This document shows positions 25,372 to 43,141 of a stretch of 64,000 nucleotides of DNA, one piece after another. Origin of the DNA: an uncultured Candidatus Binatia bacterium. Lineage in GTDB: Bacteria; Desulfobacterota; Binatia; UBA9968; CAXXLF01. Positions within the stretch are counted from its first letter, which is position 1, and every line of letters begins with the position of its first letter. Under the pieces are notes generated by a model, which saw only the letters and a list, made by a program, of their open reading frames with translations, was not told the DNA's origin and did not search any database. The stretch lies in NCBI GenBank assembly GCA_965218425.1, contig OZ244621.1, forward strand, positions 3,264,001 to 3,328,000, given 5' to 3'. Made by a program: the position numbers and the translations under genes.

Positions 25372-26019
25372 CTACCAGGGTCCCTTTCCCATGGCCCATC
25401 GGTCTAGACTGGCGAGGTACTCGCGAAAGAGTACCATACGCATGGCCACGGCCCGGCGTGCCACGTCCTGCTTTTCAGGTTCCGTTGCGTAGCGCTTCAG
25501 GATTTGCTGGGGAATACTGCCGTGACCCTCTTCATCGCCGGTGATCCGTCGATAGGGTTGTTTGATCCAATCCGGCACGGACTGGTCTCGAAGGGACATT
25601 TGCGTCAGATAGGCTGCAACCGATTCTCCCGCCAGGGAGAACCCGGTAATTCGCTGGCAGGTATTCGTTAGTCCCTCCAGTGCGTTGAACATCGCCGTTT
25701 GGGCGGGGAGTGGCCGGTAGTCGAATGGCTCGTGTCCCAGGCCCGAGATTCGATCCGCCAGAAGCTCTGCATGGACCATTTCCTCGTGAGCCGATTTCGC
25801 CAGCAGGGCCTTAATCTCAAACTCCGGTGTTGTTCTTAGCCAGGTACCAAAGAGGTCGGCCGCGCGGAGCTCGTTGAATAATCGACTCTTCATCACGCGA
25901 ATCCGCTCTTCGTCAGTTTTCAGAGGAATGTAACAGTAGGCAGGTGGTTGGGCGTCTAGCGTTCGGCAAAAGTCTCTTACAATGCCCAGTAATTCTTGTA
26001 CGAATTCTTGGCTCTCCAT
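25372..26019 (-). CDS. Ferritin-like (di-iron) domain protein
   Basis: NE...EEMVH...GE...DEEGH paired E/ExxH ligands; RBS GGGAG before ATG 26019. Confidence 0.7.
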   Translation of the reverse strand: MESQEFVQELLGIVRDFCRTLDAQPPAYCYIPLKTDEERIRVMKSRLFNELRAADLFGTWLRTTPEFEIKALLAKSAHEEMVHAELLADRISGLGHEPFDYRPLPAQTAMFNALEGLTNTCQRITGFSLAGESVAAYLTQMSLRDQSVPDWIKQPYRRITGDEEGHGSIPQQILKRYATEPEKQDVARRAVAMRMVLFREYLASLDRWAMGKGPW

Positions 26020-26288
26020 TACAAATCTCCCGTTATTCGACACTGTGACAAGAGTTCTCTCCCTATCACACGAGAAAAAGGTGTCAAGGTTGCGGTTGAA
26101 AAAGCCAAATCAGAATTCATCCAGGGTTCCGAAACTTTCTGATGGCTGGCCCCCGTTGCAAACCGGGTGCTCCCCGGTGAACGCGGGTAATCGGGAGTGA
26201 GGTTGGCCGACCTAAATGAAAATTTTACCGAGTTAGATTGCTAAAAGATAATTCTAGCCGGTTCAGGGAAGCGTGATCTTGCACCGAA

Positions 26289-26307
26289 GGAACCCGTAGA
26301 GGGTTCC
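26289..26307 (-). terminator. Hairpin just downstream of the GMC gene
   Basis: GGAACCC-5nt-GGGTTCC, 16 nt past the stop codon; weak U-tract. Confidence 0.35.
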
Positions 26308-26323
26308 CTGATGGTAGGTTATC

Positions 26324-28006
26324 CTAGCCGACCAGCTTCCCGTTGGATTTGATATACTGCGCAGTGCGGTACGCAAGGGCACTCACTGTGGGCGTGGCGG
26401 CATAGCCAGTCATGGTGGGAAACACCGCAGAGCCCACCACAAAGAGATTTTCCACGTCGTGAGTCTGGCAGTAGCCATTGACCACCGACTTTTTCGGATC
26501 ATCGCCCATGCGTGTTCCGCCGGCCCAACGGCTGCCACGGTTACTTGGTTTTGTCCAAACATGGCTCGCGCCTGCCTCCCGCATGATTCCTTCCGACTTT
26601 TCACCGATGTAGCGCCACACGCGGTGCTCGTTGTGGTGGAAGTCGAAGGTAACACGGGGCAGTGGAACTCCCCAGGCGTCTTTTCGCACCGGGTCCAGGT
26701 CCACAAAGTTGTCCTTATGGGCGAGGGTCTCGGGGTGTATGCTTACATCGAAGCCCCGGGTGTAGTAGCGAGCGAGATTTTCTTTGTACTTTTCCCCCCA
26801 ACGGGGCCAACCCGGTGGAATGACATCGCATCGCTCGATGGGTGCACCGCCGCCACTGGTTCCGATTGTGCCTCCGCGGATAAATCCCAGGCCGGCATGG
26901 TCGAAGTTATTGCCGTTGAAGTCATCCAATCGCATGCCGCCGTTGGGGCCAATAAATCCGTTGATAATGGTATCGTCAAATAGACCCGTGGTACGGACAT
27001 CCCCATGGGCCATAATACAACGGCCCAACATCCCGCTGGAATTAGCGAGGCCCTTTTTCCCCTCTCCCGAGAGCAGCAGTAACCGGATGTTTTCGTAGAG
27101 AAAGCCTGCCAGGATAATCACCTTGGCGGATTGTTCCACCACTTTACCGTCTGGGTCGAAATAGGAAACGCTATTGGCCCGTCCATTGGGGCCGGAGTTG
27201 ACCCGAAAGACCTTGCATCGTGTGCGCAGGTCCAGGTTCCCTGTTTCCAGCGCAGCCGGGATCACGGTGAAAGGCGAGGAAGTCTTGGCATGCACATGGC
27301 AGCCGTAGTTGTTGCAATGACCGCAATAAACGCACCCTTGGCGCTCGGGTATACGTTGATCGTATGGCGCTGGAGGTTTGTAGGGCTGCGACAGGATGCC
27401 CTGGGGGGTCTGGTAGGCATGGTATCCGAGACGCTTGCAGGCGTCGCCGAATAGTTGCGTACGGGTACTCGGACGCAATGGAGGCAAGGGGTAGCCTTTT
27501 TTGCGAGGGCCTTCGAAAGGATTGGCGCCGGAATTACCCGAAACACCCATTTCCCACTCAAAACGTTCATAATAGGGCTCAAGGTCGTCGTAGGTGATGG
27601 GCCAATCGGCGATATTGTAACCTTTCAGGTCAGCGCCGGCTCGTTTGGCAACCCCTCCGCGTACGTCGTTGCTATAGACTTTGAAGTCGTCCGGCATAAA
27701 TCGTGTTGCACTACCTGTCCAGATCATCAGTCCGCCACCAACACTGTTACTCGGAGAGGTGGTGTATTGGAGCCTTGTCTTGGCGCCACGCTCAGGCCGG
27801 ATGCTGATGGGTTCGTGCTTGACCTTTTCCTCGAGTTGTCGTCTGGCAATGGCACGTATGGAGTCCTTGTAAGCGTAGTCCTCGAACTCGAGAAGCGGGC
27901 CCCGCTCGAGCCCTGCCACTTTCAGTCCGGCGGACGCGAGCTCCTTTGCCATGATGCCGCCCACCGCACCCATGCCCACGATGCAAACGTCAACGGGATT
28001 TGGCAT
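26324..28006 (-). CDS. GMC oxidoreductase, gluconate 2-dehydrogenase flavoprotein-like
   Basis: GMGAVG FAD loop, WPITYDDLEPYY, CVYCGHC-x3-C cluster, GGTRMG; RBS GAGGAG before ATG 28006. Confidence 0.9.
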   Translation of the reverse strand: MPNPVDVCIVGMGAVGGIMAKELASAGLKVAGLERGPLLEFEDYAYKDSIRAIARRQLEEKVKHEPISIRPERGAKTRLQYTTSPSNSVGGGLMIWTGSATRFMPDDFKVYSNDVRGGVAKRAGADLKGYNIADWPITYDDLEPYYERFEWEMGVSGNSGANPFEGPRKKGYPLPPLRPSTRTQLFGDACKRLGYHAYQTPQGILSQPYKPPAPYDQRIPERQGCVYCGHCNNYGCHVHAKTSSPFTVIPAALETGNLDLRTRCKVFRVNSGPNGRANSVSYFDPDGKVVEQSAKVIILAGFLYENIRLLLLSGEGKKGLANSSGMLGRCIMAHGDVRTTGLFDDTIINGFIGPNGGMRLDDFNGNNFDHAGLGFIRGGTIGTSGGGAPIERCDVIPPGWPRWGEKYKENLARYYTRGFDVSIHPETLAHKDNFVDLDPVRKDAWGVPLPRVTFDFHHNEHRVWRYIGEKSEGIMREAGASHVWTKPSNRGSRWAGGTRMGDDPKKSVVNGYCQTHDVENLFVVGSAVFPTMTGYAATPTVSALAYRTAQYIKSNGKLVG

Positions 28007-28523
28007 GCCACTCCTCCTCGGTTGAAAAGGGCCGGTCCACTGCCACTGGCTCAACATCCACGCGCTGGTTGATGTACTGATGGGAATAACCAAATTGATG
28101 ACCGGGGAAGCCCACCAGTCGCCAGCCTACCATATCACGGTTCCCCCCGTATGCAGGCTCGCCGAGGACACCCTCCATGGTGTGGTCCCGAAGCATCTCA
28201 AAGAAGTCAGTGGCTTGTTTGAAGTCGGGGACCTGGTCCGCCTCGAAATCCGCAAGCACTAAGTCCCGGTCAGTTACGGCTATGCGTAGGAAGCCAACGC
28301 CGAATCGGCGTTTTGCGTGGCGATTCAAGGCGCGGCACCCGCTCCGGTAAAGGGAGGCGAGCTCCGGGAACGCTTCACCGAGCAACCGTTGGATGTAATT
28401 AATTACTCCGGCTTCGGTGGCACCAGGAGTTTCAGTGGTGGGAAAAATTCGCGCAGCGGCCGCTTCCACTACGGCCGCGTGCATTTTGATCAATACTGGA
28501 CTCGTATCTCGGTTGTCGCTCAT
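27990..28523 (-). CDS. Gluconate 2-dehydrogenase subunit 3 family protein
   Basis: RIFP...PGATEAGVINYI, TMEG...PAYGGNRDMVGWRLVGFPG; overlaps the flavoprotein start. Confidence 0.9.
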   Translation of the reverse strand: MSDNRDTSPVLIKMHAAVVEAAAARIFPTTETPGATEAGVINYIQRLLGEAFPELASLYRSGCRALNRHAKRRFGVGFLRIAVTDRDLVLADFEADQVPDFKQATDFFEMLRDHTMEGVLGEPAYGGNRDMVGWRLVGFPGHQFGYSHQYINQRVDVEPVAVDRPFSTEEEWHAKSR

Positions 28524-28644
28524 AATGGCGCGCAGGATATGCGAAAACGAGGGGGCTGTCAATCGGCCGCTAGGGTTAGATTATTTGATGGCTTGACAGG
28601 TCGGCTGCCGCCGGTATTTTTTACTTTTTGAGAGGTGCATCTTT

Positions 28645-29214
28645 TTATCTGCCTTTCTTTTTCTTGGCGTCAAAATACCCCCACAACAAATTTCGCGAGA
28701 CCCAACCTTCGTCTCCTTCGTCGGTTTGCACCTTGACCCAATCGCCCTGTTTGGCCAGAATTCGAAAAGCCACACCCTTGTCGGCGGTCAGTATGATGGG
28801 GTGACGGGTGCCGGGACCCTGTCGGACATTGGCCCTGGGCACCTTTACTGCGGCAGCAGGCTCCTTGTCCGTCAGCGGACCATAGATCCAATCCTCGAAC
28901 CCTTCAAAGTCCCTCACCTTCAGCCAAGAACCTTTCCGACTGATTACCCGGTAGGGATAATTCTCCGGGACCTTTCCTACTTTATCGAATTTTTTTCCAG
29001 GTCCGGATCGGATATTAGCGGTTTTCACCTTGACTCGCACCATATCCGCCGCCCAGGATAGTCCTTCCAACGAGACCAAACAGATGAGAGTGCTTGCTAT
29101 AAAAACCGCGATCAGGCGACCGTGGCTCAATGAAGCTAGAGTGCGATTTGGGTAAGTTCTATGTTGTCGGTTCATATGGTCAAATCCTTGAGAGATCATA
29201 ACATTAATTTTCAT
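28645..29214 (-). CDS. Exported tandem bacterial SH3-domain protein
   Basis: Signal peptide plus two ANxRxGPG...WxKV...GW repeats; true start may be about 29175. Confidence 0.88.
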   Translation of the reverse strand: MKINVMISQGFDHMNRQHRTYPNRTLASLSHGRLIAVFIASTLICLVSLEGLSWAADMVRVKVKTANIRSGPGKKFDKVGKVPENYPYRVISRKGSWLKVRDFEGFEDWIYGPLTDKEPAAAVKVPRANVRQGPGTRHPIILTADKGVAFRILAKQGDWVKVQTDEGDEGWVSRNLLWGYFDAKKKKGR

Positions 29215-29298
29215 TCTGCAGTAAGAATATATTGTTGTGTTTGGTTCCCTGCCAACCTCATCCGTCTATATGAATTGTTCGATAAAAATCCCATTTTC

Positions 29299-30075
29299 TC
29301 AAGTCCAACCACACACTTGCATAGAATATTTACATCTATTCCGTGCCCCATGCCACCTGTGCTTCCATGGGGTTTGAAATGGTTCCTTGTATGGCGACTT
29401 CACATCTCCCGTGGAGACCTTTCTTACGGTCCCACCACTCGTTTTCATAACCGTTAAGCCATTGTTCCAGAGTTTTTTGAAGAAATCCCAGCCAAACTTA
29501 CTGGAAAGGGCCTCTACTGTATCGAGAGTTGACCACGAGTAGTTGGGAGCTGGTATTGCAATTTGGCCCTTCCATTTATTGTCGAGGAGGTTCATCCAGT
29601 CTTTAGGTGACTGGTCGGGACTGACCATTTTCGTGTTATAGGTGATGCCCATGTTCAGGATTCTACCTACGGTGAAGAAACCGTCAGGATCTTTGTAGAT
29701 GGATGGAATCACAGATGCGTTGGGCGAGGTATACTTCAAAAGCAACCCTTGTTCCTTTAGGTCGATAAAATACGCGGGGTCGGCCGCCCATATCAGGTTG
29801 GCCTTAACTCTCCCGGTAGATTTAAGGTCGGATTTTACTTTGACGATGATCTTGTTGGTTCCAGATCGGTAACCCCGGAAGTTAATATCTGGATTGAGCT
29901 GGTCAATTTGCTTTATAATCGGTAGGATCACGCTGTTGGGTACTGACGTGTAGATGGTCGACGGCGTTTCTCCATAGGCTGTTGCCGGTAGCAGCAGCAA
30001 AAACATAATGGTGGATCCAAGGGCGTACTTCCCAGTTCCCATGCCTCTCCTTCCCACCAACGATTCTCCCTTCAA
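29299..30075 (-). pseudogene. 3'-truncated Fe3+-type ABC solute-binding protein
   Basis: IYTS, YKDPDG, YNTK, PKDWMNLLDNKWKG motifs; similarity stops near VSTGDV and the C-terminal third is missing. Confidence 0.65.
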
Positions 30076-30261
30076 TACGATAACATCGAGGCTTAGACGC
30101 CCGATACTGCTCTTGATCTGCTTGTGAACAGCTGGCTCTCTGAGGTCAAGCTCGTAGCCTCCTCCAATGGACCCCCATAGACATGGCGGTGACCTTATAA
30201 TATAGTGCCCCTGCTAACGGGGTGATCCGTAATTTAACTCATCCAGGGAGGAACCTGACGA

Positions 30262-31227
30262 TTGGGTAGTGGCAAAGCGCTTCATGTTGCAACTCATTCC
30301 GGCTGGTACCGCTTTGAAAACAACGGTGGCGTTTATAAGGAGACCGGCAGGGCGCTTACCTACTGGACTTTAAGCTGCCTTGCCGTGGATCCAGAAGATC
30401 CTCAGACCGTCTATGCGGGCACTGATCACTCGGGCCTGTTTTTCTCACCTGACGGTGGTGTCTCGTGGTTGCGAGCAAACCCCGGCATACCCCATCTGAA
30501 CTTGTTTTCATTACTTGCCTTACCTGGATCACTCCTGGTGGGAACACGGCCGGCAGCCGTGTACCGTGGCATTCCAGGTGGCGACTGGCTGGAACTAGAG
30601 GGGGTGCGGACTGAGAGTGCCGGTGGAGTGTTTCCCCCTAACCCAGAACTCAGCCCACGGGTCCGCGCCTTGGCTGAAGATCCAGGTTCGCCCTCTCGCA
30701 TATATGCCGGGATAGAAGTCGGTGGGTTGCTGGTAAGCGACGATGGGGGCGAGGCATGGCAACCTGCAAACGACGGTCTCACCGATCCCGACGTGCACCA
30801 GATCTGCCATTGCGGTTACAACCCGGAATTGGTTCTTGCGGCCTGCGGTGAGGGAGTTTTTCGTAGCGTCGACCGTGCTTCCCACTGGGCAGAGGTTACG
30901 CCACAGGGGTCAAGGACCTATGGAACTACCATTGCTGAGGCGGCTGGCGGGATGATGTATCTGGGAATTTCTTTGGGCCGGCCCAACACCTGGCTCGGAA
31001 CAGGAAGAGCCAACTCTGCAATTATTCGAAGCCGTGAAGGGGGTCTTGACTGGGAAGTGGTAGCGGAAGGCCTCCGTGGTGGTATCATGGACACGACACC
31101 CGACCCAGACAGTGACGGAATTATCGCCGCAACCTCAGAGGGCGAGCTACTTGCCATTGAGGGGTCTGAATGTCGAACCCTTATAAGCGGCCTTCCCTGT
31201 ATTTCCGCTGTCGTATTTGGTGGCTGA
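30262..31227 (+). CDS. BNR/Asp-box beta-propeller protein
   Basis: Repeated SxDGGxxW boxes (SPDGGVSW, SDDGGEAW, SVDRASHW, SREGGLDW); RBS GGGAGG and TTG start. Confidence 0.82.
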   Translation: MGSGKALHVATHSGWYRFENNGGVYKETGRALTYWTLSCLAVDPEDPQTVYAGTDHSGLFFSPDGGVSWLRANPGIPHLNLFSLLALPGSLLVGTRPAAVYRGIPGGDWLELEGVRTESAGGVFPPNPELSPRVRALAEDPGSPSRIYAGIEVGGLLVSDDGGEAWQPANDGLTDPDVHQICHCGYNPELVLAACGEGVFRSVDRASHWAEVTPQGSRTYGTTIAEAAGGMMYLGISLGRPNTWLGTGRANSAIIRSREGGLDWEVVAEGLRGGIMDTTPDPDSDGIIAATSEGELLAIEGSECRTLISGLPCISAVVFGG

Positions 31228-31249
31228 CCGTCGCTAGATGTTAAAGACC

Positions 31250-31732
31250 CTATCTGCGGGCATAAATTTGCATCCCACCGTTCCGGTCGAAGCCAATGAC
31301 GTTGTATGGCTGAGGGTTGGGACCCTCCATTCCGGGCGAGCCTATGGGCATGCCCGGTACGCCCAAGCCGGTGAGGGATGTACTCTCGTTTAATAGTTTC
31401 ATTATGAGATCGGCAGGGACATGACCTTCGATGACATATGTGCCAATGAGTGCGGTGTGGCACGAATATAAGGCGGGGGGAACGCCATGCTTTACCTTCA
31501 CCGTTTGAAGTTGAGACTGCGATAGCTCTTTGATCGTAACACGAAAACCATTCTCTTCCAGGTGACCCACCCAGCTGGAACAACAACCTCAACCCGGGCT
31601 TCTGTAGACCGTAATCTGCGGTCCAGCGGGGAGATTGGGCTGGGAGTATAGAACGGTAGCAGCAACCACAACTCCTATGGCGATGCTCATCAGTGAGAGC
31701 AATCGCAACCTTTTGATATTCATTTTCTTCAT
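31250..31732 (-). CDS. Exported DUF411 (CopG-like) metal-binding protein with in-frame TGA; candidate selenoprotein
   Basis: RBS AGAGG + ATG 31732, signal peptide, then VYRSPG-TGA(31591-31589)-GCCSSWVGHL in frame with SCHTA, IEGHVPA and PGMPIGSPGME; 160 aa with readthrough. Confidence 0.8.
31556..31580 (-). promoter_or_regulatory. Putative bacterial SECIS element
   Basis: mRNA +9..+33 after UGA: UUCCA/UGGAA stem, 4-nt bulge, GGUG/CACC stem, GGU apical loop at +22..+24. Confidence 0.55.
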
Positions 31733-31742
31733 TTTCCTCTAG

Positions 31743-33205
31743 CTAGTTCTCACTGAAAAACTACCGTTTGTAGATGACTCTATGGCCCTGACACTCACAT
31801 CAGGCATTTCATTGCCGAGAAGGTGCGGTCCTTACCACCATCTTTTACCTCCTGCTGCCACAGATTGTATGCAAAAATGACCCATCCCGTCCAGATCGCC
31901 GTGCCTGGAGCTCCCCTAGCCAGTACTCGACCCAGAGAAAACTTGCCTTTGAGCATACCGATCCCCGCTTCTATCCCGCAGCCGACCCCTTGCATTGCCC
32001 TAAACCACTGTTTCCCCTCATGGCGGCTTTCCCTCATACTCAAGCCACCAACCTCCGGGATACCTACCCTCGCTATACCGGCCTTGCCCAACTTCCCGAC
32101 GTTATCGGCGCCTTAGTATCCTCGGTCCGCTGCCACCTCCTTAGGCTTGACCCCCAGACGCTTTTCACTTTGGCTCACCACACAAAGCAGTTGAGTGCTG
32201 TCGTTAGGATTACCACCATGGACCTCATCGTGAACGATGACTCCACAACTGTCGTGCACCAGTTGCAACGTGCGCCCGAACTCCACGGGCCTGTTGAGCT
32301 TGCCCTTGCAGGTGGCTCGTGCCTCGGCATCGTGGAACGAAACGATCCTATCGGGTATCGACTTCTTGCCCTGAAGCTTGTGCTCGGTCTGGCTCACAAT
32401 CCTCTCGGCCACCTCAATTTGTTCCAAATACTTCTCCTTGTCCTTACTTGGCTCCGACACCGTAGCACAAAGTCGTTCAAAGACCTTGCCGCTCTCGTGT
32501 ACCGTATGCTTGGCCAGCTTGCCCCATGCTTAACAATCTTCCCTCCCTTTTCCTTGCCCCCCTTGGGCTTCTCCCTTCCAGCCCCACTACAAGCAAACAG
32601 GGCTCGCTTGGTGCCACGTACATGCTGCCGTGCGGGTAAGCGTGTTGACCGCCCGGTCAACAACACCGACATCGTTGGGATAACTGATGTGAACTTGCAG
32701 CGTGGCCGAGTCGATACGAATGCGCCGGGCCTTGATCGATCGGCTCTTAACCAACGATCTGACCAGCTCCTGATTGAGCTTGGCCACCCGCTGTCGGCCA
32801 AATCCGTGGTTGAGCTTGATCAAGGTGGTGGCCTCCGCTACGGCATCCATGAGCGACCAATGGCAGAAATAACGCCACGGAACTCTCTCTCACTCACTTC
32901 CCTCTCAACCTCTTCGTAGCTCAAACCCCAGCGAAACTTCAGATACATCATTCGAAGGTAAATCCCTACAGGAGTGCCACGACGACCCGGCTCTCATGGA
33001 AAACCTTCTCGAAAGGCTTAAGCAATCGGGGATTATTCAAAAGCTTCTCAGCCTTGTTAACCTCCTCATCCAGTGCATAAAGAGAGGGGTGGATAAAGCC
33101 GTCGCCAGAACTGAACTGCTGAGATATGGGTGTACGCATGGTCTTATTTGTACCACGAGTCGCTAGAGATGACCCAGAAAAAATGACTTTTTCAGTGAGA
33201 ATTAG
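31743..33205 (-). mobile_element. IS5/ISNCY-family insertion sequence with fragmented transposase
   Basis: Terminal inverted repeats CTAGTTCTCACTGAAAAA (31743-31760) and TTTTTCAGTGAGAATTAG (33188-33205), 17/18 match. Fragments YLRMMYLKFRWGLSYEEV, RIDSAT, GKLNRPVEFG, ADRGY and GIEAGIG lie in broken frames. Confidence 0.88.
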
Positions 33206-33217
33206 TTAAGATGATTG

Positions 33218-33868
33218 TCAAGGGAGTTTTTGTCCGAAGAAGGGTACGTGCAGGCTAATATGCTCTTTCACAAGGAACTGCCCCTTGGGACCCACCCCGT
33301 GGATGTGGACCAACTTTGCGCCGTAATGGCCGGCAAGACCGACCATCACGACCGATAGCAGCAATAGAACCGTGGTAGAAGCCTGCAAGCTGAACCGCGA
33401 AAAGCGACGTGTGCAAGTCAACGTCCCTAATGGCACAGCAATTGCCATGAGATATAGAGTTAGGCTGGCAAAGAGGTCATGGCTCCACAACGCGTTTTGT
33501 GAGGCGGCAGTCAATCCAACTGTGTGAGGGTGGAAAACGTAACCGGCCAATAAGGCCCCTAGAAAGCCAAAAAAAGCCAAAACTATACCGGATCGTCTCA
33601 GGATCATTTGCCGGCGCAGCATTCCCAATAAGTAAAAGGGAAAAGCAGCAACGGTAAGTACAATGGGGAAATGTACGATCAAGGGATGAAAAGTGGGAAA
33701 ACCCTCCCTTGCTAAGTTTTCTTCCGTATGCCCTAGTTCTTTTTGGTCGACTACCTTAAGTTTCGTTGACGGTTGGTTCTCTTGATTATGTGTACCATCG
33801 CTTGGGTGAAGGACGGAGGCGGAGAGAAAAAAAGCAAAGATCAAGACAAAGAACGGAGTGCTGAGCAT
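33218..33868 (-). CDS. DUF2231-type His-containing membrane protein
   Basis: HPLIVHFPI, about 4 TM helices, AGHYGAKLVHIHGVG. Confidence 0.8.
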   Translation of the reverse strand: MLSTPFFVLIFAFFLSASVLHPSDGTHNQENQPSTKLKVVDQKELGHTEENLAREGFPTFHPLIVHFPIVLTVAAFPFYLLGMLRRQMILRRSGIVLAFFGFLGALLAGYVFHPHTVGLTAASQNALWSHDLFASLTLYLMAIAVPLGTLTCTRRFSRFSLQASTTVLLLLSVVMVGLAGHYGAKLVHIHGVGPKGQFLVKEHISLHVPFFGQKLP

Positions 33869-33873
33869 AGTGC

Positions 33874-34578
33874 TTAAAATTTCTCCGACCAGGGTCGCAG
33901 CTCGATGTAGGATGCCCAGGTGCTACGGTGTTGGCGGTGAAGGTGAAGATAGGTTTGAGCGATGGAATCCGGCTGGAGCATCCCGTCCGGGCCGCGTGCT
34001 TTGATCCGCTCTTGATCGCCGGCAGGATTGTAGATTCCGCCGTCGATTACAACTTGTGCCACATGGATATTCTTCGGCTGGAGTTCACGTGCCATGCTCT
34101 GTACCAGGCCGCTGAGACCAAACTTACCCATGGCATACATGGAAGAATTGGCAAAGCCCTTGATGCCTGCAGAGGCACCGGTATAGAGGATGGTTCCCCT
34201 CCCCGCTGGGATCATTCGTTTGGCTGCCTCCCGGCCGATCAAAAATCCCCCGTAACAAGTTACTAAAATGGCCTTTTGTACCTCGTCAGGATCAAGTTCC
34301 GTAATGGGCCCTCGGACTCTACGGCTCGCGTTGTAAACCACAAGGTTGGGTTCTCCGAGATCCTTGGTCACAGATCCAAACAAGCTCTCCACATCCTTAG
34401 GAACAATTGCATCACAAGGATAGGCTCGGCCACCGATCTCCTTGATCAGGCCGTCCAATTTGCCGGGATTGCGGGCCGCCACGGCCACCTTCATCCCTTC
34501 TTTGCTGAACAGTCTGGCAAGTGAGGCGCTGAGTCCCAGACCGGTTCCGACAACTAGTGCGATTTCTTGGTTGGCCAT
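33874..34578 (-). CDS. SDR family oxidoreductase
   Basis: GTGLGLS, YNA, TGASA, YAMGK, ELRPWSEKF. Confidence 0.9.
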   Translation of the reverse strand: MANQEIALVVGTGLGLSASLARLFSKEGMKVAVAARNPGKLDGLIKEIGGRAYPCDAIVPKDVESLFGSVTKDLGEPNLVVYNASRRVRGPITELDPDEVQKAILVTCYGGFLIGREAAKRMIPAGRGTILYTGASAGIKGFANSSMYAMGKFGLSGLVQSMARELQPKNIHVAQVVIDGGIYNPAGDQERIKARGPDGMLQPDSIAQTYLHLHRQHRSTWASYIELRPWSEKF

Positions 34579-34646
34579 ATTAATCCTCCCAGGGATAACG
34601 ATCCATTTTCTATTAGTTCAACTAAGGTTGGAATACAAAGAATGCC

Positions 34647-34946
34647 TTAGCGGCAGTTCTCGTACTGGTCGTCACCTCAAATTACGCAGAAATCCGGCTG
34701 GAACTCATCGAGTGCTTTCCGAGCCAGGCGAAAGCGGTCAATCATTGCCTGGCGATGCTCAATGGAAGGGGCCTCTCCTTCACCGTCCCCCCACTGTTGA
34801 CGCATGCCGTCTGGCCAATTATCAAGGGACCGCATCCGTTCAGGAAGGGCCGGGTCTGCCAGAAGTAACTTGATGCGATCGGTCATGTTCCCCTGTACGG
34901 AGAGGGCCGGATAATGAGTGATGCCAAGCCCAAATATCTGTCCCAT
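34647..34946 (-). pseudogene. N-terminal remnant of a LigB-family extradiol ring-cleavage dioxygenase
   Basis: GLGITHYP...FQPDFCVI-TGA-GDDQYEN then TAA; the rest of the gene is absent. Confidence 0.75.
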
Positions 34947-35170
34947 TGGTTCCTCCTAGACTAATGTTACACAGCAACCTTGTCCTAGAGATCTATGCGG
35001 TCCGCACCAAGGGAGCCGAGTTTGGTCCCGTAAGACAAACGATGAAGTTATATTGCGGATCCCAAATAGTGCATTAAAAATCTCCAAATGGGGCATCATT
35101 GAGAACCATGATTAACAGCCTCCTCGCCTTTTGGCAAGATATCTGAGCCAGCCGTCACCCACGTTGCTGC

Positions 35171-36143
35171 GAGCTATCATCAAAGAGTGTGGAAATAGGA
35201 GACAGGTAGGCGTACCCATTGGTAAATTCCAAACGAAAAGCTGCCTGGAGCAACAGGCAGAGAAAGGATACGCCGGTGATAGGAAAGCACAGCGGGCTGG
35301 TAGAGTCAAAGGGAGTTTTTTACGAATGCATGGAGGCATTTGCCCGGGAGAAGATTGGGGAGAAAGGGTACAGGATGTGGTGGAGCAGGAAGGAGTGGAG
35401 CGGTTGGGGAGGAACAAGAGCGAGGGGAAAGCAAGTGAAGTGGGACAGCCTGGGAATCGCAACGGCTACGGTAAGCCGCGCCGGTTCACGTTGAGCATGG
35501 GGAGCGTAGAGGTAAGAGGGGCTGGGGTAAGGAATGTGCAGGAGAGATTTAGCTTCCAGGTATTGCCGTTATTTAAGCGGCAGAGCCGCCAGGTCAGGGA
35601 GTTATTGCCGGAGCTTTATTGGCACGGTGTGGGCAGTGGGGATTTTGAGCTGGGGCTGAGGGGGCTAGTGGGAGCAGGGGCACCGCTATCGGCGTTTTGG
35701 CTTTTACGGTTCAAGGAGAAGTGGGAGGCGGACTACGAGCAGTGGGAGGCACAGGGTATGGAGGAAGAGGAGGCAGCATATCTTTGGGCAGATGGGATTG
35801 ATGTAAAGGCTGGGATAGGCAAGGAGAAGGCGGCGCTAGTATTGGTAGTGATGGGGGCGATGAGGGATGGGAGCAAGAGGTTGTTAGCATTGGAAGTGGG
35901 CTAGCGGGAGAGCAAGCAATGGTGGGCAGAGGTACTCAGGGGAGTGAAGGGGCGGGGGCTTAAGAGTGCGCGTTTTATTGTTGGGGAGGGGCATCTGGGG
36001 TTGTGGGGGGGTGCAGGAGAGATTTTTCCTGAAGCTGGGGAGCAGATCTGCTCGAATCACAAGATTCTCACGGGGTGGATGCTGTGAGTAAAAAGGATCA
36101 GGCCAAGGCCAAGGGTTATCTCAAAGCCATGATGTATGCGGAC
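35171..36143 (+). mobile_element. IS256-family remnant, copy 1 (truncated by an IS3 element)
   Basis: RNGYGKPR, LPELY.HG..SGDF, YLWADGI motifs; frameshifts and a TAG at 35902-35904. Confidence 0.85.
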
Positions 36144-37343
36144 TGACCTGCTCCCCTTTTTGTCCTCACGTATAAGTTAGCCGTGTTTCGTTATGGTCCG
36201 ATCCGGACCGGATTGCAAACTCCATCGGTGTGAGTCCGTCGAGGCTCGTGTGTGGTCTCTTGGCGTTGTAGTCGGCTCTCCAGTCTTCGATGATCTCGCG
36301 GGCATGGCGGTAGCTGGTGAACAGGTGTTCGTTGAGGCATTCGTCACGCAGAGGCCCGATGAAGCTCTCGACTAGCCCGTTCTGCATAGGCTTGCCTGGA
36401 GCGATGTAGTGCCACTCTACCCGGCGACCCTGCTGCCATCGCAGCATCACGTTGGAGGTGAACTCGGTGCCGTTGTCGGAAACCACCAACAAGGGATAAC
36501 CACGCTGTTGAGCGATGTTGTCCAGCTCTGTGGCGACCCGCTCGCCGGTGATGGAGTTGCTGAGGACGGTGGCCAGGCACTCCCGTGTGAAGTCGTCGAT
36601 CACGCAGAAAAGGCGCAAGCGCTGGCTGTCGCTCAGGGCGTCGGATGCGAAGTCCACCGACCAGCGCTGATTGGCCCCCTGCGGGATCGTCATCGGCACC
36701 CGGCTCCCAACAGCCCGCTTGCGGCCGCCTCGTTTGCGCACCGTCAACTTCTCCTCCTTGTAGAGCCGGTACAGCTTCTTGCGGTTCACCACCACGCCCT
36801 CCCGCAAAAGCAACAGGTGCACACGCCGATACCCAAACCGACGACGTTCCGCCACCAACTCCCGCAGCCTTTACCGTAACTCCCCGTCATCGGGTCTCAT
36901 CGACCGATACCGCTTACACCCGCGGCTCCATGCCCACCAGAGCGCAAGCCCGCCGCTGCCAGTGCCCTCTTTCCTTCATCGCCCGGTCCACCGCTCCTCT
37001 CCTGGTCCTGGGCGTCAGAAGTTTTTTCCCACCATCTCCTTAAGCGTCGATACGTCCAGCATCGCTTCCGCCAATAGACGCTTCAGCTTGGCGTTCTGCG
37101 CCTCAAGGTTCCCAAGCCGTTTCGCTTCCGACACCTCCAACCCACCATACTTCGAACGCCACTTGTACAACGTCGCGTCGCTGATGCCGTACTTGCGACA
37201 CAACTCCGCCACCCCACGCCCAGCCTGGTGCTCCTTCAGTATCCCGATGATCTGTTGTTCGCTGAATCGGCTCTTGCGCATGTGTCCTCTCCTCCTGGGT
37301 CAATCACTAACCTCGAGGTGAGGACATTCAAGGGGGCAGGTCA
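36144..37343 (-). mobile_element. IS3-family element (IS407-like), orfA intact, orfB damaged
   Basis: IRs TGACCTGCTCCCC...TGTCCTCAC and GTGAGGACA...GGGGGCAGGTCA; orfA 37281-37015 ends in GGAAAAAAC slippery site; DDE motifs [23 protein letters not shown] and frameshift near 36870-36920. Confidence 0.92.
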
Positions 37344-37466
37344 CTTCCTTACTCTTTTGCAAATAATGGATATTCTAAAGTTTGTAGTTCGAGCTTGACG
37401 GAACTTCGGTTTTGACTATAGTGAATGGAATAACCACAATAAAGCTAGCTTTGCCCACACAAAGTA

Positions 37467-37791
37467 ATGGAAATTTCCTCAAATAATAGAGCTCTGGACA
37501 AAATATATAAGCGTCGGCACCGCTATGAGATCCCTGATTGGCAACGCGAAGAAGTCTGGGGATACTGCTAAAAAACAAAAACTCATAGACAGTATATTAA
37601 GAGGGTGGAAATTACCAAAATTTTATTTCTTGAAAACATCTGATAATCCAGAAGAATTCGAAGTTGTTGATGGTCAGCAGCGTCTTGCAACGATTTTAGA
37701 ATTTTTTAATAACGCTCTTTCGTTGTCTGCGGAATCTTCAAAGAACTTTAAAGCGCAGTATTATCGTGATTTGGCTCCTGACGTATCCGAC
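37467..37791 (+). pseudogene. DUF262 (GmrSD/ParB-like) gene, frameshifted and truncated by IS3
   Basis: MEISSNNRALDKIYKRRHRYEIPDWQREEVW, +1 G, then LIDSILRGWKLPKFYF...VVDGQQRL; AT-rich; cut at the IS end. Confidence 0.82.
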
Positions 37792-39059
37792 TGACCTTGC
37801 CCCCTAAAACGAGTCCAGGTGAAATGTTAGGGATTTTGATTTTAGGAAGGAGGCAAGGATGGCAAGAAAGCGATTTACGGCCGAGTAGATTATCCTCAAG
37901 CTGCGTGAGGCGGAGGTGAGCTTGGCCCAAGGGAAGGCGGTGGGCCAGGTGTGCAAGCAGGTGGGGGTAACCGTGCAGACCTACTACCGGTGGAGGAAGG
38001 AATATGGAGGCCTGAAGATGGATCAGGCCAAGAGGCTCAAGGCCTTGGACAAGGAGAATGCGCGGTTGAAGAAGCTGGTGGCGGATCTATCGCTGGACAA
38101 CCAGATCCTGAAGGAAGTGTCCTCGGGAAACTTCTAGGCCCGGCGAAGAGGAGACGAGCGGTGATATGGGCCAGAGAAAGATTGGGACCTGATCGAGTCT
38201 CCGAACGCCGGGCTTGCCAAGTGTTGGGACAGCCGCGATCGACGCAACGAAGAGTCCGAGAGATCCCGGAAGAGGAAGCAAGACTAGTGGCTCGGATGAT
38301 GGAGCTGGCCAGCGAATACGGGCGATACGGCTACCGGAGGATTACGGCCATGCTGCGTGGGGAGGGGTGGAAGGTCAACCACAAGCGAGTGGAGAGGCTC
38401 TGGAGGCAGGAAGGGCTGAAAGTCCTCAGCCGTCAGCCTAAGCGAGGGAGGCTCCGGTTGACTGATGGCTCCTGCATTCGCCTGAGACCGGCGCATCGAA
38501 ACCATGTGTGGAGTTATGACTTCGTGCACGAGCGAACCGAAGACGGTCGGGCCTTTCGGCTGTTGAGCAGCCTGGATGAATACACCCGGGAGTGCTTGGC
38601 GATTGATGTGGCCAGACGGATGAATCACCGGGATGTGCTGGAACGGTTAGCGGAGCTATTCGTGGAACGGGGCGTGCCGCAGTCCCTTCGGTCCGACAAT
38701 GGCCCCGAGTTTACGGCTCAGGCTATCCGGGACTGGCTCAAGGCCATTGGTGTCAGGACACTCTACATCGAGCCTGGCAGTCCTTGGGAGAATGGCTACG
38801 TGGAGAGTTTTAACGGAAAACTCAGGGATGAGCTGCTCAACCGGGAGGTGTTTGAAACCCTGAGGGAAGCTCAGGTGCTGATCGAAAGATGGAGAAGAGA
38901 GTATAACCAGCGGCGGCCTCACAGCGCCCTGGGCTATCGTTCTCCGGCACCGGAGGCCTTTCTGCCCAGAGCGCAGGCTGGGAATTCATCCCCATGGGCT
39001 GGACTCCAGATAATTCCGGCTCTAACTTAAAGGGTGGTACCACTCCTGGGGGCAGGTCA
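37792..39059 (+). mobile_element. IS3-family element (IS407-like), orfA with nonsense codon, orfB apparently intact
   Basis: Ends TGACCTTGCCCCC and GGGGGCAGGTCA; orfA ATG 37859 with TAG at 37886; GGGAAAC frameshift site near 38125; DDE motifs [20 protein letters not shown]. Confidence 0.92.
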
Positions 39060-39178
39060 CATGAAGATAAAAGGAATTTTATATTGACATGCCATGGTTT
39101 TTATAATAAGTATTATAATGCTTCTACAAGGAGCAACAAGAAAGGAATATAAACCATAGGCCTCTGAAATCCAAGCAA

Positions 39179-40201
39179 ATGGCCATTTACACCCGTCTGA
39201 GCGAAAAGGATTGTTTACAGATCGCTGAAGAATTTGGACTTGGCGATCTCATTTCCTCAACAGGCATTCGCAACGGCTCCGTTAATACTCACTATCTTCT
39301 AGAAACCAAAAAAGGCCGCTTCTTCGTAAAGATCGACGAAATTAAAAGCGAGATGGAAGCGAAACAGGAAATCGATCTTATCCTGTTTCTGAAGCGGCAG
39401 GGGTTTCCTTGCCTCCAGCCCCTTCGAAGCAAGAAGGGGAAATACTATCACGAAATCCAATCCAAACAATTGTCCGTAAGCAAGTACGTGGAAGGAACAG
39501 AGTTGTCGGTGGATGCGTTAACTCCCGCTCAGTTAGAGATAATGGGCCATGCCCTGGCGGATCTACATCTTATTGGGAGAGGCTACAAAAAAGGCATCGA
39601 CAATCGATTCGCTTTCCCGAAAATCGTGATGATGTATCGGGAGTTCAGGAAGGATCTCCCCACCCATCTAAGAAACATTATTCGAGTCATGGACGATGAG
39701 GTCTCGTATCTGGAGAATTATCTAGATAATAATTTACCGAAAGGCGTTATCCACGGAGATTTTTTTGCCGATAACGTGAAGTTCAAAGGGTCACGGTTGG
39801 TTGGGATCGTTGACTTTGAAGCCACATGTCGGGGAAAGCTGATTTATGACCTCGCCACCGCGGTTAACGCGCTTTGTTTCCTGGATGGGCGTTACCGCAT
39901 CGATCGTTTCGAAGCCTTGATAACTGGATACGAAAATTTACGCCCGCTTTCATTGCCGGAGTGGGACTCTTTTCCCAACGAACTCCGTTTTTCAGCGATC
40001 CGGTTTACGATCACTCGAATTAAGGATTTTTATTTACGCAAGGTCGATGAAAGTCAAAGAAACTATAAAGATTTTAAAGAATTCTTTGATCGGCTCATGA
40101 TTCTTCGCAGAGAAAAAGACGGTGGAATGGAAGATCTCCTACTGGCCATGGCCACTGGCTACGATTACCGTAAATACCAGAAATCAAAACCCTCCAAATA
40201 G
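39179..40201 (+). CDS. thrB: Homoserine kinase, type II (APH-like fold)
   Basis: MAIYT, GSVNTHY, LPKGVIHGDFFADNV, GIVDF. Confidence 0.82.
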   Translation: MAIYTRLSEKDCLQIAEEFGLGDLISSTGIRNGSVNTHYLLETKKGRFFVKIDEIKSEMEAKQEIDLILFLKRQGFPCLQPLRSKKGKYYHEIQSKQLSVSKYVEGTELSVDALTPAQLEIMGHALADLHLIGRGYKKGIDNRFAFPKIVMMYREFRKDLPTHLRNIIRVMDDEVSYLENYLDNNLPKGVIHGDFFADNVKFKGSRLVGIVDFEATCRGKLIYDLATAVNALCFLDGRYRIDRFEALITGYENLRPLSLPEWDSFPNELRFSAIRFTITRIKDFYLRKVDESQRNYKDFKEFFDRLMILRREKDGGMEDLLLAMATGYDYRKYQKSKPSK

Positions 40202-40225
40202 CCCTTTTCCTAGCGACTTCTAACT

Positions 40226-40630
40226 TCAAGAGTGGTTCTTTAGGAGTCTCGAGTTGAGCCTCTTGATCTTAGATAGCGTATCCTGACGACTCAGACGGAT
40301 AAAAGCAAGGAACGTCGAAAACAGACCCAGAAAAAATAGGAGACGCCCCCCTCCCGACACCACGTAATAGAAATCCATTTTGACTCGTGACGTGTTGTAT
40401 TTTGCTCTATCCTCATTAATTCTTCTCAGTACCTCTTTGTTTTTTCGATGGTCCAGCTCTTGAAAGCTTCGATAGTTTTCCTCGAGCCCCGTTTTGGAAA
40501 TAGTTCGCATCATATTTTGATATTTGGTTACCTGCACCGCTCCCACGATCCAATTTCCAATACCCATGATTAACAGGGTCGCCGCCGTTACCAGGAGATA
40601 ATTAGAATAGAAATCCTTGGGCTTCATCAT
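40226..40630 (-). CDS. Hypothetical two-TM membrane protein
   Basis: 134 aa ORF with two hydrophobic helices around a soluble loop. Confidence 0.65.
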   Translation of the reverse strand: MMKPKDFYSNYLLVTAATLLIMGIGNWIVGAVQVTKYQNMMRTISKTGLEENYRSFQELDHRKNKEVLRRINEDRAKYNTSRVKMDFYYVVSGGGRLLFFLGLFSTFLAFIRLSRQDTLSKIKRLNSRLLKNHS

Positions 40631-40857
40631 TAAGGCTCTCTGCTAGCGACTATCAAGCTCAAGGTTGAATGTCAAATCATTTCAGGAGCTGATCAATATG
40701 ATAGTGTTCATGGCATGGGAATGAAAAATGGCCTAATTCATCGATACAATGACCTTCCACTTCGCCCAATTCTTAGCCATGATCTTCTCTCAGCTCGTGG
40801 CTTTACCTTTTAAAACGAGGCCACCTCATTCTCACTTCACAAATTACCATAATTATT

Positions 40858-41846
40858 GAGCTATCATCAAAGAGTGTGGAAATAGGAGACAGGTAGGCGT
40901 ACCCATTGGTAAATTCCAAACGAAAAGCTGCCTGGAGCAACAGGCAGAGAAAGGATACGCCGGTGATAGGAAAGCACAGCGGGCTGGTAGAGTCAAAGGG
41001 AGTTTTTTACGAATGCATGGAGGCATTTGCCCGGGAGAAGATTGGGGAGAAAGGGTACAGGATGTGGTGGAGCAGGAAGGAGTGGAGCGGTTGGGGAGGA
41101 ACAAGAGCGAGGGGAAAGCAAGTGAAGTGGGACAGCCTGGGAATCGCAACGGCTACGGTAAGCCGCGCCGGTTCACGTTGAGCATGGGGAGCGTAGAGGT
41201 AAGAGGGGCTGGGGTAAGGAATGTGCAGGAGAGATTTAGCTTCCAGGTATTGCCGTTATTTAAGCGGCAGAGCCGCCAGGTCAGGGAGTTATTGCCGGAG
41301 CTTTATTGGCACGGTGTGGGCAGTGGGGATTTTGAGCTGGGGCTGAGGGGGCTAGTGGGAGCAGGGGCACCGCTATCGGCGTTTTGGCTTTTACGGTTCA
41401 AGGAGAAGTGGGAGGCGGACTACGAGCAGTGGGAGGCACAGGGTATGGAGGAAGAGGAGGCAGCATATCTTTGGGCAGATGGGATTGATGTAAAGGCTGG
41501 GATAGGCAAGGAGAAGGCGGCGCTAGTATTGGTAGTGATGGGGGCGATGAGGGATGGGAGCAAGAGGTTGTTAGCATTGGAAGTGGGCTAGCGGGAGAGC
41601 AAGCAATGAGTCGCCCTTCTCGAGGGTGAGGCTGAGAACAGCTGCCTCCAGACGGTTTAAATCTCAGGTCAATGCCGCCTGTTTGATCTGGAAGACAATG
41701 ATGATTGCGGAAATGAGTTTTAGGAAGCTGGACGCACCGCACTGGGTGGAGAAGGTAGCTGAAGGAAGAAAATACGGAGACGGGATTGGAATCGAAAAAA
41801 CCAGGGTCGCCGCCTAGATCTTTTACCCGCTATTTGACAACAGATC
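40858..41846 (+). mobile_element. IS256-family remnant, copy 2 (internal deletion, both ends kept)
   Basis: 40858-41608 repeats 35171-35921, then jumps to the C-terminal ESPFSRVRLRT; imperfect IR (17/26) at 41821-41846. Confidence 0.85.
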
Positions 41847-42061
41847 TGTCCCTTCAGCTTTATTGCTAGGTAAATAGACCTATTAGGGGCTCCGCCACGG
41901 CCATGGGGCCGCGTAAATGCCTTCCCGAACGGCATTTATGGGTGAACGATTATGGAGGTTGACTTGGAGTATGATTCTCGGATAGTTTCTGGAACGGATT
42001 CGATTCCGGGGCGGATTTTCGCTGCCCCGGGTTGACCGTAAATCATGAGGAGGTCAAAAGC

Positions 42062-43141
42062 GTGCAGATCATAGATGCGGATACTCATATCGACGAAACC
42101 GATGCTACTTGGGAATACATGCGTACAGAGGAGATGGAGTTCAAGCCCACCACTGCCTATCCGGCGAAGTTAGACCCGTCGCGGCCTCCCATCCGTTACT
42201 GGATGATCGACGGACAGCGGCATCTACGGTTCACCAGGGACGACAAAAGGACACGCACAACCGTTGAGACTCGGGAGCTCCTGGACATACAGGCGCGTTT
42301 ACGGGCCATGGATGAGATGGGGACACATGTGCAGGTCATCTACCCCACCCTGTTTATCGTGGAAGTAACCCAGCGCCCCGAGGTTTCCGTAGCAATAAGG
42401 CATTCTTACAACCGGTGGCTGGCAAGCCGTTGCGCTGAGTCGGGGGGCCGCTTGCGTTGGGTGTGTATGCCGCCGCTTTTGAGCATGGATGAGGCCCTCA
42501 AGGAATTACGGTTTGCGAAAGACCACGGTGCCTGCGGTGTAATGAAGAAAGGGGACGTGGAGGCGGGAAAGTGGCCGGCCGACCCATACTTCTTTCCACT
42601 CTATGAGGAGGCGCAGCGCCTCGATATGCCCATTTGCATCCACACCGGCACTGGAACCCCTGACCGTCCTTCCATGAAGGACGTGTCCTTGGGGCAGTTC
42701 ATGCGCTCGCAGCTTTCCGCCATCCACGCCTTTCACACCCTGATACGCCACGACGTTCCCGGCAAATTTCCAAAGCTTCGCTTCGGTATCGTTGAAGCGA
42801 ACTCTTCATGGATCCCCTATGTTGCCTATGAGTTAAGGAGGCGTTTGAAGAGGTTTAGCGGCGGCTCCACGTTTGGTACGCTCCAATACAAGTTCCAAGC
42901 CGATTTGCTCAAGGCCAACCGGATGTATGTGACCTGTCAGGTGGATGAGGACCTGCCTGCAATCATGAAGATCGCCGGCGAGGATAATTTGATGATCGGC
43001 TCCGACTACACGCACGCTGATCAATCCATGGAGCATGACTTTCCTCGCTTGCTGCAGGAGCGTGCCGATCAAGGGGATCTTCCACCGAGCGCGGTTAAAA
43101 AAATTCTCTACGAAAACGCAAAGGCGTTTTACGGACTGTGA
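42062..43141 (+). CDS. Amidohydrolase_2 family protein
   Basis: IIDADTH, QVIYPT, ICIH, GSDYTH; RBS GAGGAGG before GTG 42062. Confidence 0.9.
   Translation: MQIIDADTHIDETDATWEYMRTEEMEFKPTTAYPAKLDPSRPPIRYWMIDGQRHLRFTRDDKRTRTTVETRELLDIQARLRAMDEMGTHVQVIYPTLFIVEVTQRPEVSVAIRHSYNRWLASRCAESGGRLRWVCMPPLLSMDEALKELRFAKDHGACGVMKKGDVEAGKWPADPYFFPLYEEAQRLDMPICIHTGTGTPDRPSMKDVSLGQFMRSQLSAIHAFHTLIRHDVPGKFPKLRFGIVEANSSWIPYVAYELRRRLKRFSGGSTFGTLQYKFQADLLKANRMYVTCQVDEDLPAIMKIAGEDNLMIGSDYTHADQSMEHDFPRLLQERADQGDLPPSAVKKILYENAKAFYGL

Follow-up and report, generated by a model that had tools for sequence, protein, structure and literature searches.

CopG of Pseudomonas aeruginosa (DUF411, PF04214) is a periplasmic, thioredoxin-like protein that binds a tetranuclear copper cluster through a CxCC motif and two methionines and has Cu(I)/Cu(II) oxidoreductase activity in the anaerobic state, as described in the available text of PMC7558416, PMC8456105 and PMC8872213. 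Together with CutG of Rhodobacter capsulatus, it is the closest described system to the gene analysed here. Two groups of selenoproteins offer further comparisons in the available text of PMC13188914. Catalogued thioredoxin-fold selenoproteins of the UxxC type (Trx, Grx, DsbG-like and Prx-like) carry selenocysteine (Sec) as the N-terminal residue of a CxxC motif and have an in-frame hairpin 16-37 nt from the UGA, and predicted metal-handling selenoproteins (a P-type ATPase with UxxC, the SO_0444 Cu/Zn efflux transporter with UxC, a mercuric transport protein and a CopZ-family 2Fe-2S protein) have Sec at the position of a presumed soft-metal-binding Cys.

The locus examined here lies in a 64,000-nt stretch of the genome of an uncultured Candidatus Binatia bacterium (contig OZ244621.1), hereafter the window. 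Its predicted product is like CopG and CutG in sequence, predicted fold, the position of the CxCC motif, the SCHT, EGHVP and Met-x6-Met motifs and a predicted N-terminal export-type segment, whereas its first Cys codon is TGA, a hairpin with a G-led loop follows 3' of this codon, and no copper operon was found around the window copy among the 11 nearby ORFs scanned. With the catalogued UxxC selenoproteins it would share both the placement of Sec and a downstream in-frame hairpin, but it belongs to a separate family and has an extra Cys (U-G-C-C) as well as a C-terminal His/Met metal-binding part. Its predicted Sec likewise replaces a presumed soft-metal-binding Cys, as in the metal-handling group, whose members fall into other Pfam and NCBIfam families and none of which is described with a multinuclear copper cluster in the available text of PMC13188914.

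Judging from sequence comparison, we regard it as very likely that at the family level the TGA is read as Sec, yielding a selenoprotein variant of CopG. For the window gene itself, we assign a probability of roughly 0.7 to the reading that it is an intact CopG-family gene whose TGA specifies Sec and whose product, predicted to be exported, would bind and redox-cycle copper in the manner of CopG. PF04214, CopG and DUF411 are absent from the 119-family table in the available text of the 2026 review (PMC13188914), the family is not mentioned in the four supplements searched of deep-Sep (PMC12013277), and a literature search linking DUF411 or CopG to selenoproteins or selenocysteine found no report, with Haft and Tolstoy 2025, Deng et al. 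2026 and BSepDB Table S2, any of which could name the family, outside its coverage. With this family, the known set of bacterial selenoproteins would gain a widespread member.

A CopG-family gene with a single in-frame TGA

The gene occupies window positions 31732 to 31250 on the reverse strand and comprises 160 codons followed by a TAG (31252-31250), encoding 160 aa if the TGA is Sec. An earlier note on this DNA, made from the letters alone, had described one TGA and no other lesion, and this is what we find: from ATG 31732 to the TAG, the frame is open except at 31591-31589 (codon 48), where the translation reads VYRSPG, TGA, GCCSSWVGHL. Based on the sequence and its homologues, codon 48 is a predicted Sec at the first Cys of CxCC. 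A plain ORF list makes only the last 106 aa visible (31570-31250, from a GTG), as the note had remarked, and its expectation that annotation would truncate such genes is borne out by the databases, in which 106-aa calls from the same downstream codon account for 17 of the best 120 protein matches, one of them this gene, and in which the GenBank entries of close homologues are fragments of 103-106 aa.

The read-through protein matches Pfam DUF411 (PF04214) with an E value of 2.5e-23 and 82 bits against a cut-off of 27; an NCBIfam scan of the same protein returned no family (best E 0.078). In a 90-row alignment, conservation in the first-Cys column of CxCC reaches at least 90%, and the second and third Cys never vary. 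Provided that the TGA is decoded, both CxCC and Met-x6-Met are present, as U48-G-C50-C51 and M128/M135. The U-G-C-C motif (31591-31580) is placed by alignment and model as a UxxC opening helix 1 of a glutaredoxin-like fold, and the alignment further identifies C91-H92 of the invariant SCHT motif (31462-31457), H104 of the invariant EGHVP motif (31423-31421) and the M128-x6-M135 pair (31351-31328), which the available text of PMC8456105 describes as copper ligands in CopG/CutG.

The start proposed in the earlier note stands in part. An RBS-like AGAGGA is present at 31740-31735, immediately after the end of an insertion sequence (IS), but it is only 2-3 nt from ATG 31732, and ATG 31723 is a second candidate start. 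Residues 1-29 (31732-31646) are basic and then strongly hydrophobic (best 11-mer Kyte-Doolittle score 2.74) with an unclear cleavage site, from which hydropathy predicts an export signal or membrane anchor. A hydrophobic N-terminal stretch is found in 121 of 124 TGA homologues, 28 of which have a lipobox-like motif.

TGA occurs at the same codon in homologues from several phyla

The homologue search suggested in the earlier note revealed TGA at this codon in relatives from more than 100 other bacterial genomes across several phyla, which makes it likely that Sec is encoded, although kin are not independent in this or any of the homologue and carrier counts below. Among four other genomes of the same family, one (G002) has a homologue that is 59% identical and shares the TGA codon, and past the TGA, the two genes differ with dS 2.3 and dN 0.28. 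The same-genus genome G001 has no copG match, and a sample of 400 genomes of the phylum yielded no clear homologue and just two weak matches. The genome under study (G000; 4.46 Mb, 97% complete) has a second copG copy at 4453727-4454209, which is not counted as independent because it is identical and lies inside a 13-kb repeat reaching the contig end. Window positions 25962-39061 are repeated (99.95%) up to the contig end and 37792-42887 at the contig start; the sequence indicates that this repeat of window 25962-42887 is likely an unresolved repeat or an assembly overlap.

Matching the DNA pattern Y-x-x-P-x-TGA-G-C-C-x-x-W against GTDB genomes gave at least 120 matches, and 111 of the 120 listed were identified as DUF411 with TGA at this codon by an HMM built from 91 Cys homologues, the other nine being chance matches. 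By label, the pattern matches come from Acidobacteriota, Gemmatimonadota, Chloroflexota, Rokubacteria/Methylomirabilota, Binatia, Betaproteobacteria, Desulfuromonadales, Tectomicrobia, Pseudomonadales and one Helicobacter. The last is a cultured isolate labelled Helicobacter brantae (L111) that has the TGA form and selB; nearly all other carriers are metagenome-assembled genomes.

Three further samples, not chosen by the pattern, were centred on single lineages. In 201 Gemmatimonadota genomes (the phylum of G410), 15 of the 150 matches listed out of 165 contain a stop, in each case a single TGA and in all 15 at this codon; three of these 15 genomes were already among the pattern matches, and the tallies include the unpublished G604, on which alone no conclusion depends. 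Among 136 genomes of a betaproteobacterial family (that of G409), one TGA is present in 79 of 92 DUF411 matches and TAA or TAG in none, and all 26 of the 79 that were read have the TGA at this codon. TGA is thus the majority form in this family, yet annotation leaves a 106-aa fragment that lacks the active-site motif and the export signal. In the order of G430 (201 genomes, with 117 DUF411 matches in 98 of them), TGA was found only in the pre-selected centre; selB was detected in 20 of the 201, and none of the 85 DUF411 genomes without detected selB has a stop. A position control with TGA at the last Cys, run on a different collection, returned at least 116 metagenome matches, and none of the 116 listed is DUF411.

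Three genomes (G414, G596 and G615) encode DUF411 twice, once with TGA and once with Cys, and these pairs are a possible selenium-dependent backup arrangement. Tandem two-domain DUF411 proteins of 230-279 aa were also observed (P0002, P0003 and P0005).

Selenocysteine machinery in the genome and among carriers

The earlier note had proposed a genome-wide search for selA, selB, selC and selD, and all four were recovered: selA, selB and selD score above curated cut-offs, selD having one internal TGA, and there is one tRNA-Sec (76.5 bits), the sole tRNA with a UCA anticodon at default settings.

Of 50 TGA carriers tested for Sec genes (G002 and 49 of the 111), 47 have them, with selB above cut-off in 42, selA in four of the other eight and tRNA-Sec in one of the last four; three draft genomes (G428, G452 and G453) have no Sec gene with the queries used. 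For comparison, Sec users make up 21.5% of bacteria according to the available text of PMC5029168, or 16,621 of more than 64,000 genomes according to that of PMC13326102. Within two of the sampled lineages, the co-occurrence is a weak test since the baselines there are 80-85%: all 15 Gemmatimonadota TGA genomes have selA against 161 of all 201, and in the G409 family selB is found in 67 of 74 TGA genomes against 116 of 136, with five more having selA or tRNA-Sec and two drafts (G677 and G711) having no Sec gene with the queries used.

A hairpin downstream of the TGA

A SECIS-like hairpin at window positions 31574-31558, supported by the minimum free energy (MFE) fold and a register test, has a 7-bp stem (+15 to +21 with +25 to +31) and a GGU loop at 31567-31565, 21 nt past the UGA. 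At -10.5 kcal/mol, it lies within the published bSECIS constraints (PMC13188914), and we infer that SelB would bind it and bring Sec-tRNA. The GGU loop at +22 to +24 and the GGUG/CACC pairing of the earlier note are present in the MFE fold, but its UUCCA/UGGAA lower stem is not the conserved register, which is instead the upper stem from C15-G31 to G21-C25. The stability of the hairpin is not unusual against 200 shuffles (z -0.02), and a loose sliding-window scan under generic bSECIS criteria does not separate the two kinds of gene, passing 101 of 124 with TGA and 32 of 37 with Cys.

When six pairs and G22 were required in a fixed register, 24 of 31 Gemmatimonadota TGA genes fitted against 2 of 37 Cys genes of the same phylum, and G22 plus G/U23 alone gave 24 of 31 against 0 of 37, a contrast that is partly fitted since the register was picked after the TGA genes had been viewed. 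The register also fits 25 of 26 TGA genes of the G409 family, but just 59 of 124 TGA genes overall. Covariation was seen in the 91 of 134 TGA contexts that are in register, where the synonymous position +27 tracks +19 (+19:+27 being A-U in 16, A-C in 4, G-C in 66, G-U in 1 and other in 4) and +21:+25 is G-C in 49 and A-U in 10; across all 134 contexts, +15:+31 is G-C in 75 and C-G in 13, including this gene. In a synonymous-shuffle test, the full set of TGA genes gave a significant result (0.364 against 0.136, p 9e-4), but Gemmatimonadota alone did not (p 0.17). A Vicinamibacterales clade of TGA genes lies off the common register (L037, L058, L070, L094, L098, L099, L112, L113, L134, L135, L140 and L142), and in eight TGA genes the best fold is a hairpin with a 7-nt loop, GGUCUCA or GGUCUUG. 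SECIS shape seems to vary among lineages.

The W-V-x-H codons of Cys genes already supply most of the hairpin stem. As the stem is mostly pre-encoded by W-V-x-H-L codons, switching between Cys and Sec was probably eased. At residue +8, Asp is found in 20 of 37 Cys genes, in contrast to Gly or Val in 23 of 30 Gemmatimonadota TGA genes. The family also offers a view of how a SECIS element can emerge within a conserved coding motif, with both an amino-acid change and covariation tracking the hairpin.

Probable repeated changes between Cys and Sec

On a FastTree phylogeny of 250 rows with the site masked, 28 Cys/Sec changes were counted against a shuffled mean of 84; database 'Cys' proteins were used as recorded. 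An AU test on 64 hand-picked rows, in which the hairpin-coding residues were also masked, rejected a single Sec clade (p 0.0019), which implies more than one switch, with gains indistinguishable from losses; the underlying tree has 111 columns and low support, and its starred branches force just three changes. The family would be one that moves between Cys and Sec in repeated steps.

Predicted fold and a possible role in copper handling

Among PDB sequences, CopG alone matches (6WIS/6WJE; E 4e-30). Residues 39-160, with Cys substituted for Sec, give an AlphaFold model with a pLDDT of 94.6 that superimposes on 6WIS with Z 21.2 and an rmsd of 1.2 Å over 119 residues, the next folds being glutaredoxins and NrdH at Z 6-7. 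The identification of DUF411 with CopG fits the earlier note's suggestion of an exported copper- or metal-handling protein, in which export and the copper role are predictions from sequence. In the proposed mechanism, the hydrophobic N-terminal segment would direct the protein out of the cytoplasm, and the mature part is predicted to adopt the fold of P. aeruginosa CopG. U48 would then be the nucleophilic, N-terminal residue of a glutaredoxin-type UxxC, and the conserved Cys, His and Met residues are all kept. By analogy to CopG, the protein would bind several copper ions and interconvert Cu(I) and Cu(II) or pass copper on, and selenium at the copper site could provide a ligand or redox centre that is softer and more reactive. 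A bolder proposal is that Sec is a direct ligand of a multinuclear copper cluster, which would make this a natural extracytoplasmic copper-selenium protein that became established in several phyla through repeated switches on a hairpin pre-built in the codons; we hold this tentatively, at a little under even odds.

The alternative that survives best accepts Sec but views the protein, in most hosts, as an exported, glutaredoxin-like thiol/selenol oxidoreductase of the UxxC type, unconnected with copper and possibly with DUF2231 as electron partner. It is consistent with the glutaredoxin and NrdH folds that follow CopG, with Sec at the N-terminal position of UxxC, which is typical of redox selenoproteins (available text of PMC13188914), and with the lack of effect of Rhodobacter CutG Cys/Met mutants on CutO activity (available text of PMC8456105). 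Genomic context bears on both sides. The genes around the 88 TGA loci that have flanking sequence were clustered and representatives scanned for 39 of the 45 largest clusters, singletons being left out, and recurrent copper neighbours were found at a minority of the loci, so that most lack them, as this alternative would predict. On the other hand, betaproteobacterial TGA copies lie amid copper genes (multicopper oxidase, outer-membrane efflux protein, cupredoxin and CusF, at 4-5 loci each), and a P-type ATPase occurs within the fetched flank at 6 TGA loci. The TGA genes also retain Cys-His-Thr/Ser in 121 of 124, EGHxP in 121 of 124 and Met-x6-Met in 114 of 124, and DUF2231 adjoins copG solely in G000 and G002, for which reason its candidacy as a general partner of copG was dropped. 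On balance, we consider an oxidoreductase without a copper role unlikely and favour a CopG-like copper protein containing Sec. Since the structure of CopG is solved and its copper activity described, comparing the Cys form with the Sec form could directly address the role of selenium at a copper site.

An insertion sequence upstream of the window copy

In G002, genes for a short-chain dehydrogenase, a DUF2231 membrane protein and copG are contiguous. The same order is kept in the window, with the dehydrogenase at 34578-33874 and the DUF2231 gene at 33868-33218, both on the reverse strand and identified by scan and synteny, but here a broken IS intervenes before copG. This element, which may be IS5-like, spans 31743-33205, has 14-bp terminal inverted repeats at 31747-31760 and 33188-33201, and was delimited from the sequence and a related copy at G000:876592-877583. 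Its flanks are CTAA and CTAG, and the related copy is shorter; none of its three ORF pieces has a Pfam match. No copper gene was found beside the window copG among the 11 nearby window ORFs scanned.

Because the IS ends 11 nt before the copG start, expression of the window copy is uncertain, and a further possibility, which is compatible with the Sec reading of the family, is that this copy is silent or decaying, its promoter cut off by the IS. The IS separates the DUF2231 stop (33218) from the RBS (31740) at a junction that is seamless in G002, many IS remnants lie close by, and G001 has no match to the gene, all of which would suit a silent copy. Against this, the frame, the motif residues and the hairpin are intact, and copG and the IS ORF share one orientation; a promoter scan also found a weak promoter-like site upstream at 31893-31864, albeit at chance level (2 found against 2.4 expected). 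We judge silence of the window copy to be improbable, though by no means negligible, and retain the reading of an intact gene.

Other explanations of the TGA codon

Another explanation is that a changed code or a suppressor tRNA lets the UGA be decoded as Cys or Trp. Cys-inserting tRNA-Sec-like species exist in some deltaproteobacteria, and several JGI records show W at the site (P0012, P0014 and P0124-P0128). The latter look like gene-caller artefacts in which TGA was apparently called as Trp: a 43-aa member of the cluster (P0122) stops precisely there, and a second W record overruns its C-terminal stop. In addition, the only tRNA with a UCA anticodon in the genome at default settings is tRNA-Sec, the neighbouring DUF2231 gene ends in TGA, and Trp would cost a nearly invariant Cys, such that we consider this explanation very improbable. 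Least tenable is a pseudogene that arose by a single Cys-to-stop mutation, for although TGY to TGA is one substitution and broken elements abound in the region, the codon has been retained over saturated synonymous divergence and several phyla, and every stop read falls at this codon with none in the 85 DUF411 genomes of the G430 order without detected selB and none at the control Cys, so that this idea is effectively refuted at the family level.

Other candidate selenoprotein genes in the genome

A first genome-wide scan for TGA plus hairpin was too noisy and was dropped; a dicodon-filtered scan for TGA read-through did better, giving 365 candidates, from which 11 were chosen by eye among the 110 listed and 10 of these scanned. 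Nine of the 10 are members of families already known to include selenoproteins and have the TGA at the family motif (GrdA, GrdB, two OsmC-like, DUF3179, deiodinase-like, peroxiredoxin, Prx-like and DsbG-like), and the tenth is an FAD oxidoreductase. In five of the 10, a hairpin with a G-led loop lies 17-23 nt past the UGA, matching in form the copG hairpin with its GGU loop at 21 nt. No Sec-type formate dehydrogenase (formate dehydrogenase-N) was found above the TIGR01553 cut-off, and Sec use in this genome is therefore not centred on FdhA.

Four of the TGA genes lie within 10 kb (G000:C1, 2280113-2289605) and encode DUF3179, the FAD oxidoreductase, a GrdB-like protein and GrdA (L345, L349, L350 and L353), and the DsbG-like, peroxiredoxin, two OsmC-like, deiodinase-like and Prx-like genes are additional read-through genes on that contig (L344, L346, L347, L348, L351 and L352). 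The FAD oxidoreductase gene (L345:325-1692, forward strand; TGA at 2282341) encodes a PRK06370-type FAD pyridine-nucleotide disulfide oxidoreductase that scores above the NF004992 cut-off, and its TGA falls on the second active-site Cys (C-V-N-T-G-U). The codon is TGA in the same-genus G001 (91% identity) and TGC in G004, and the hairpin is not clearly canonical. This CxxxxU form, which does not appear in Table 1 in the available text of PMC13188914, may be another unlisted selenoprotein.
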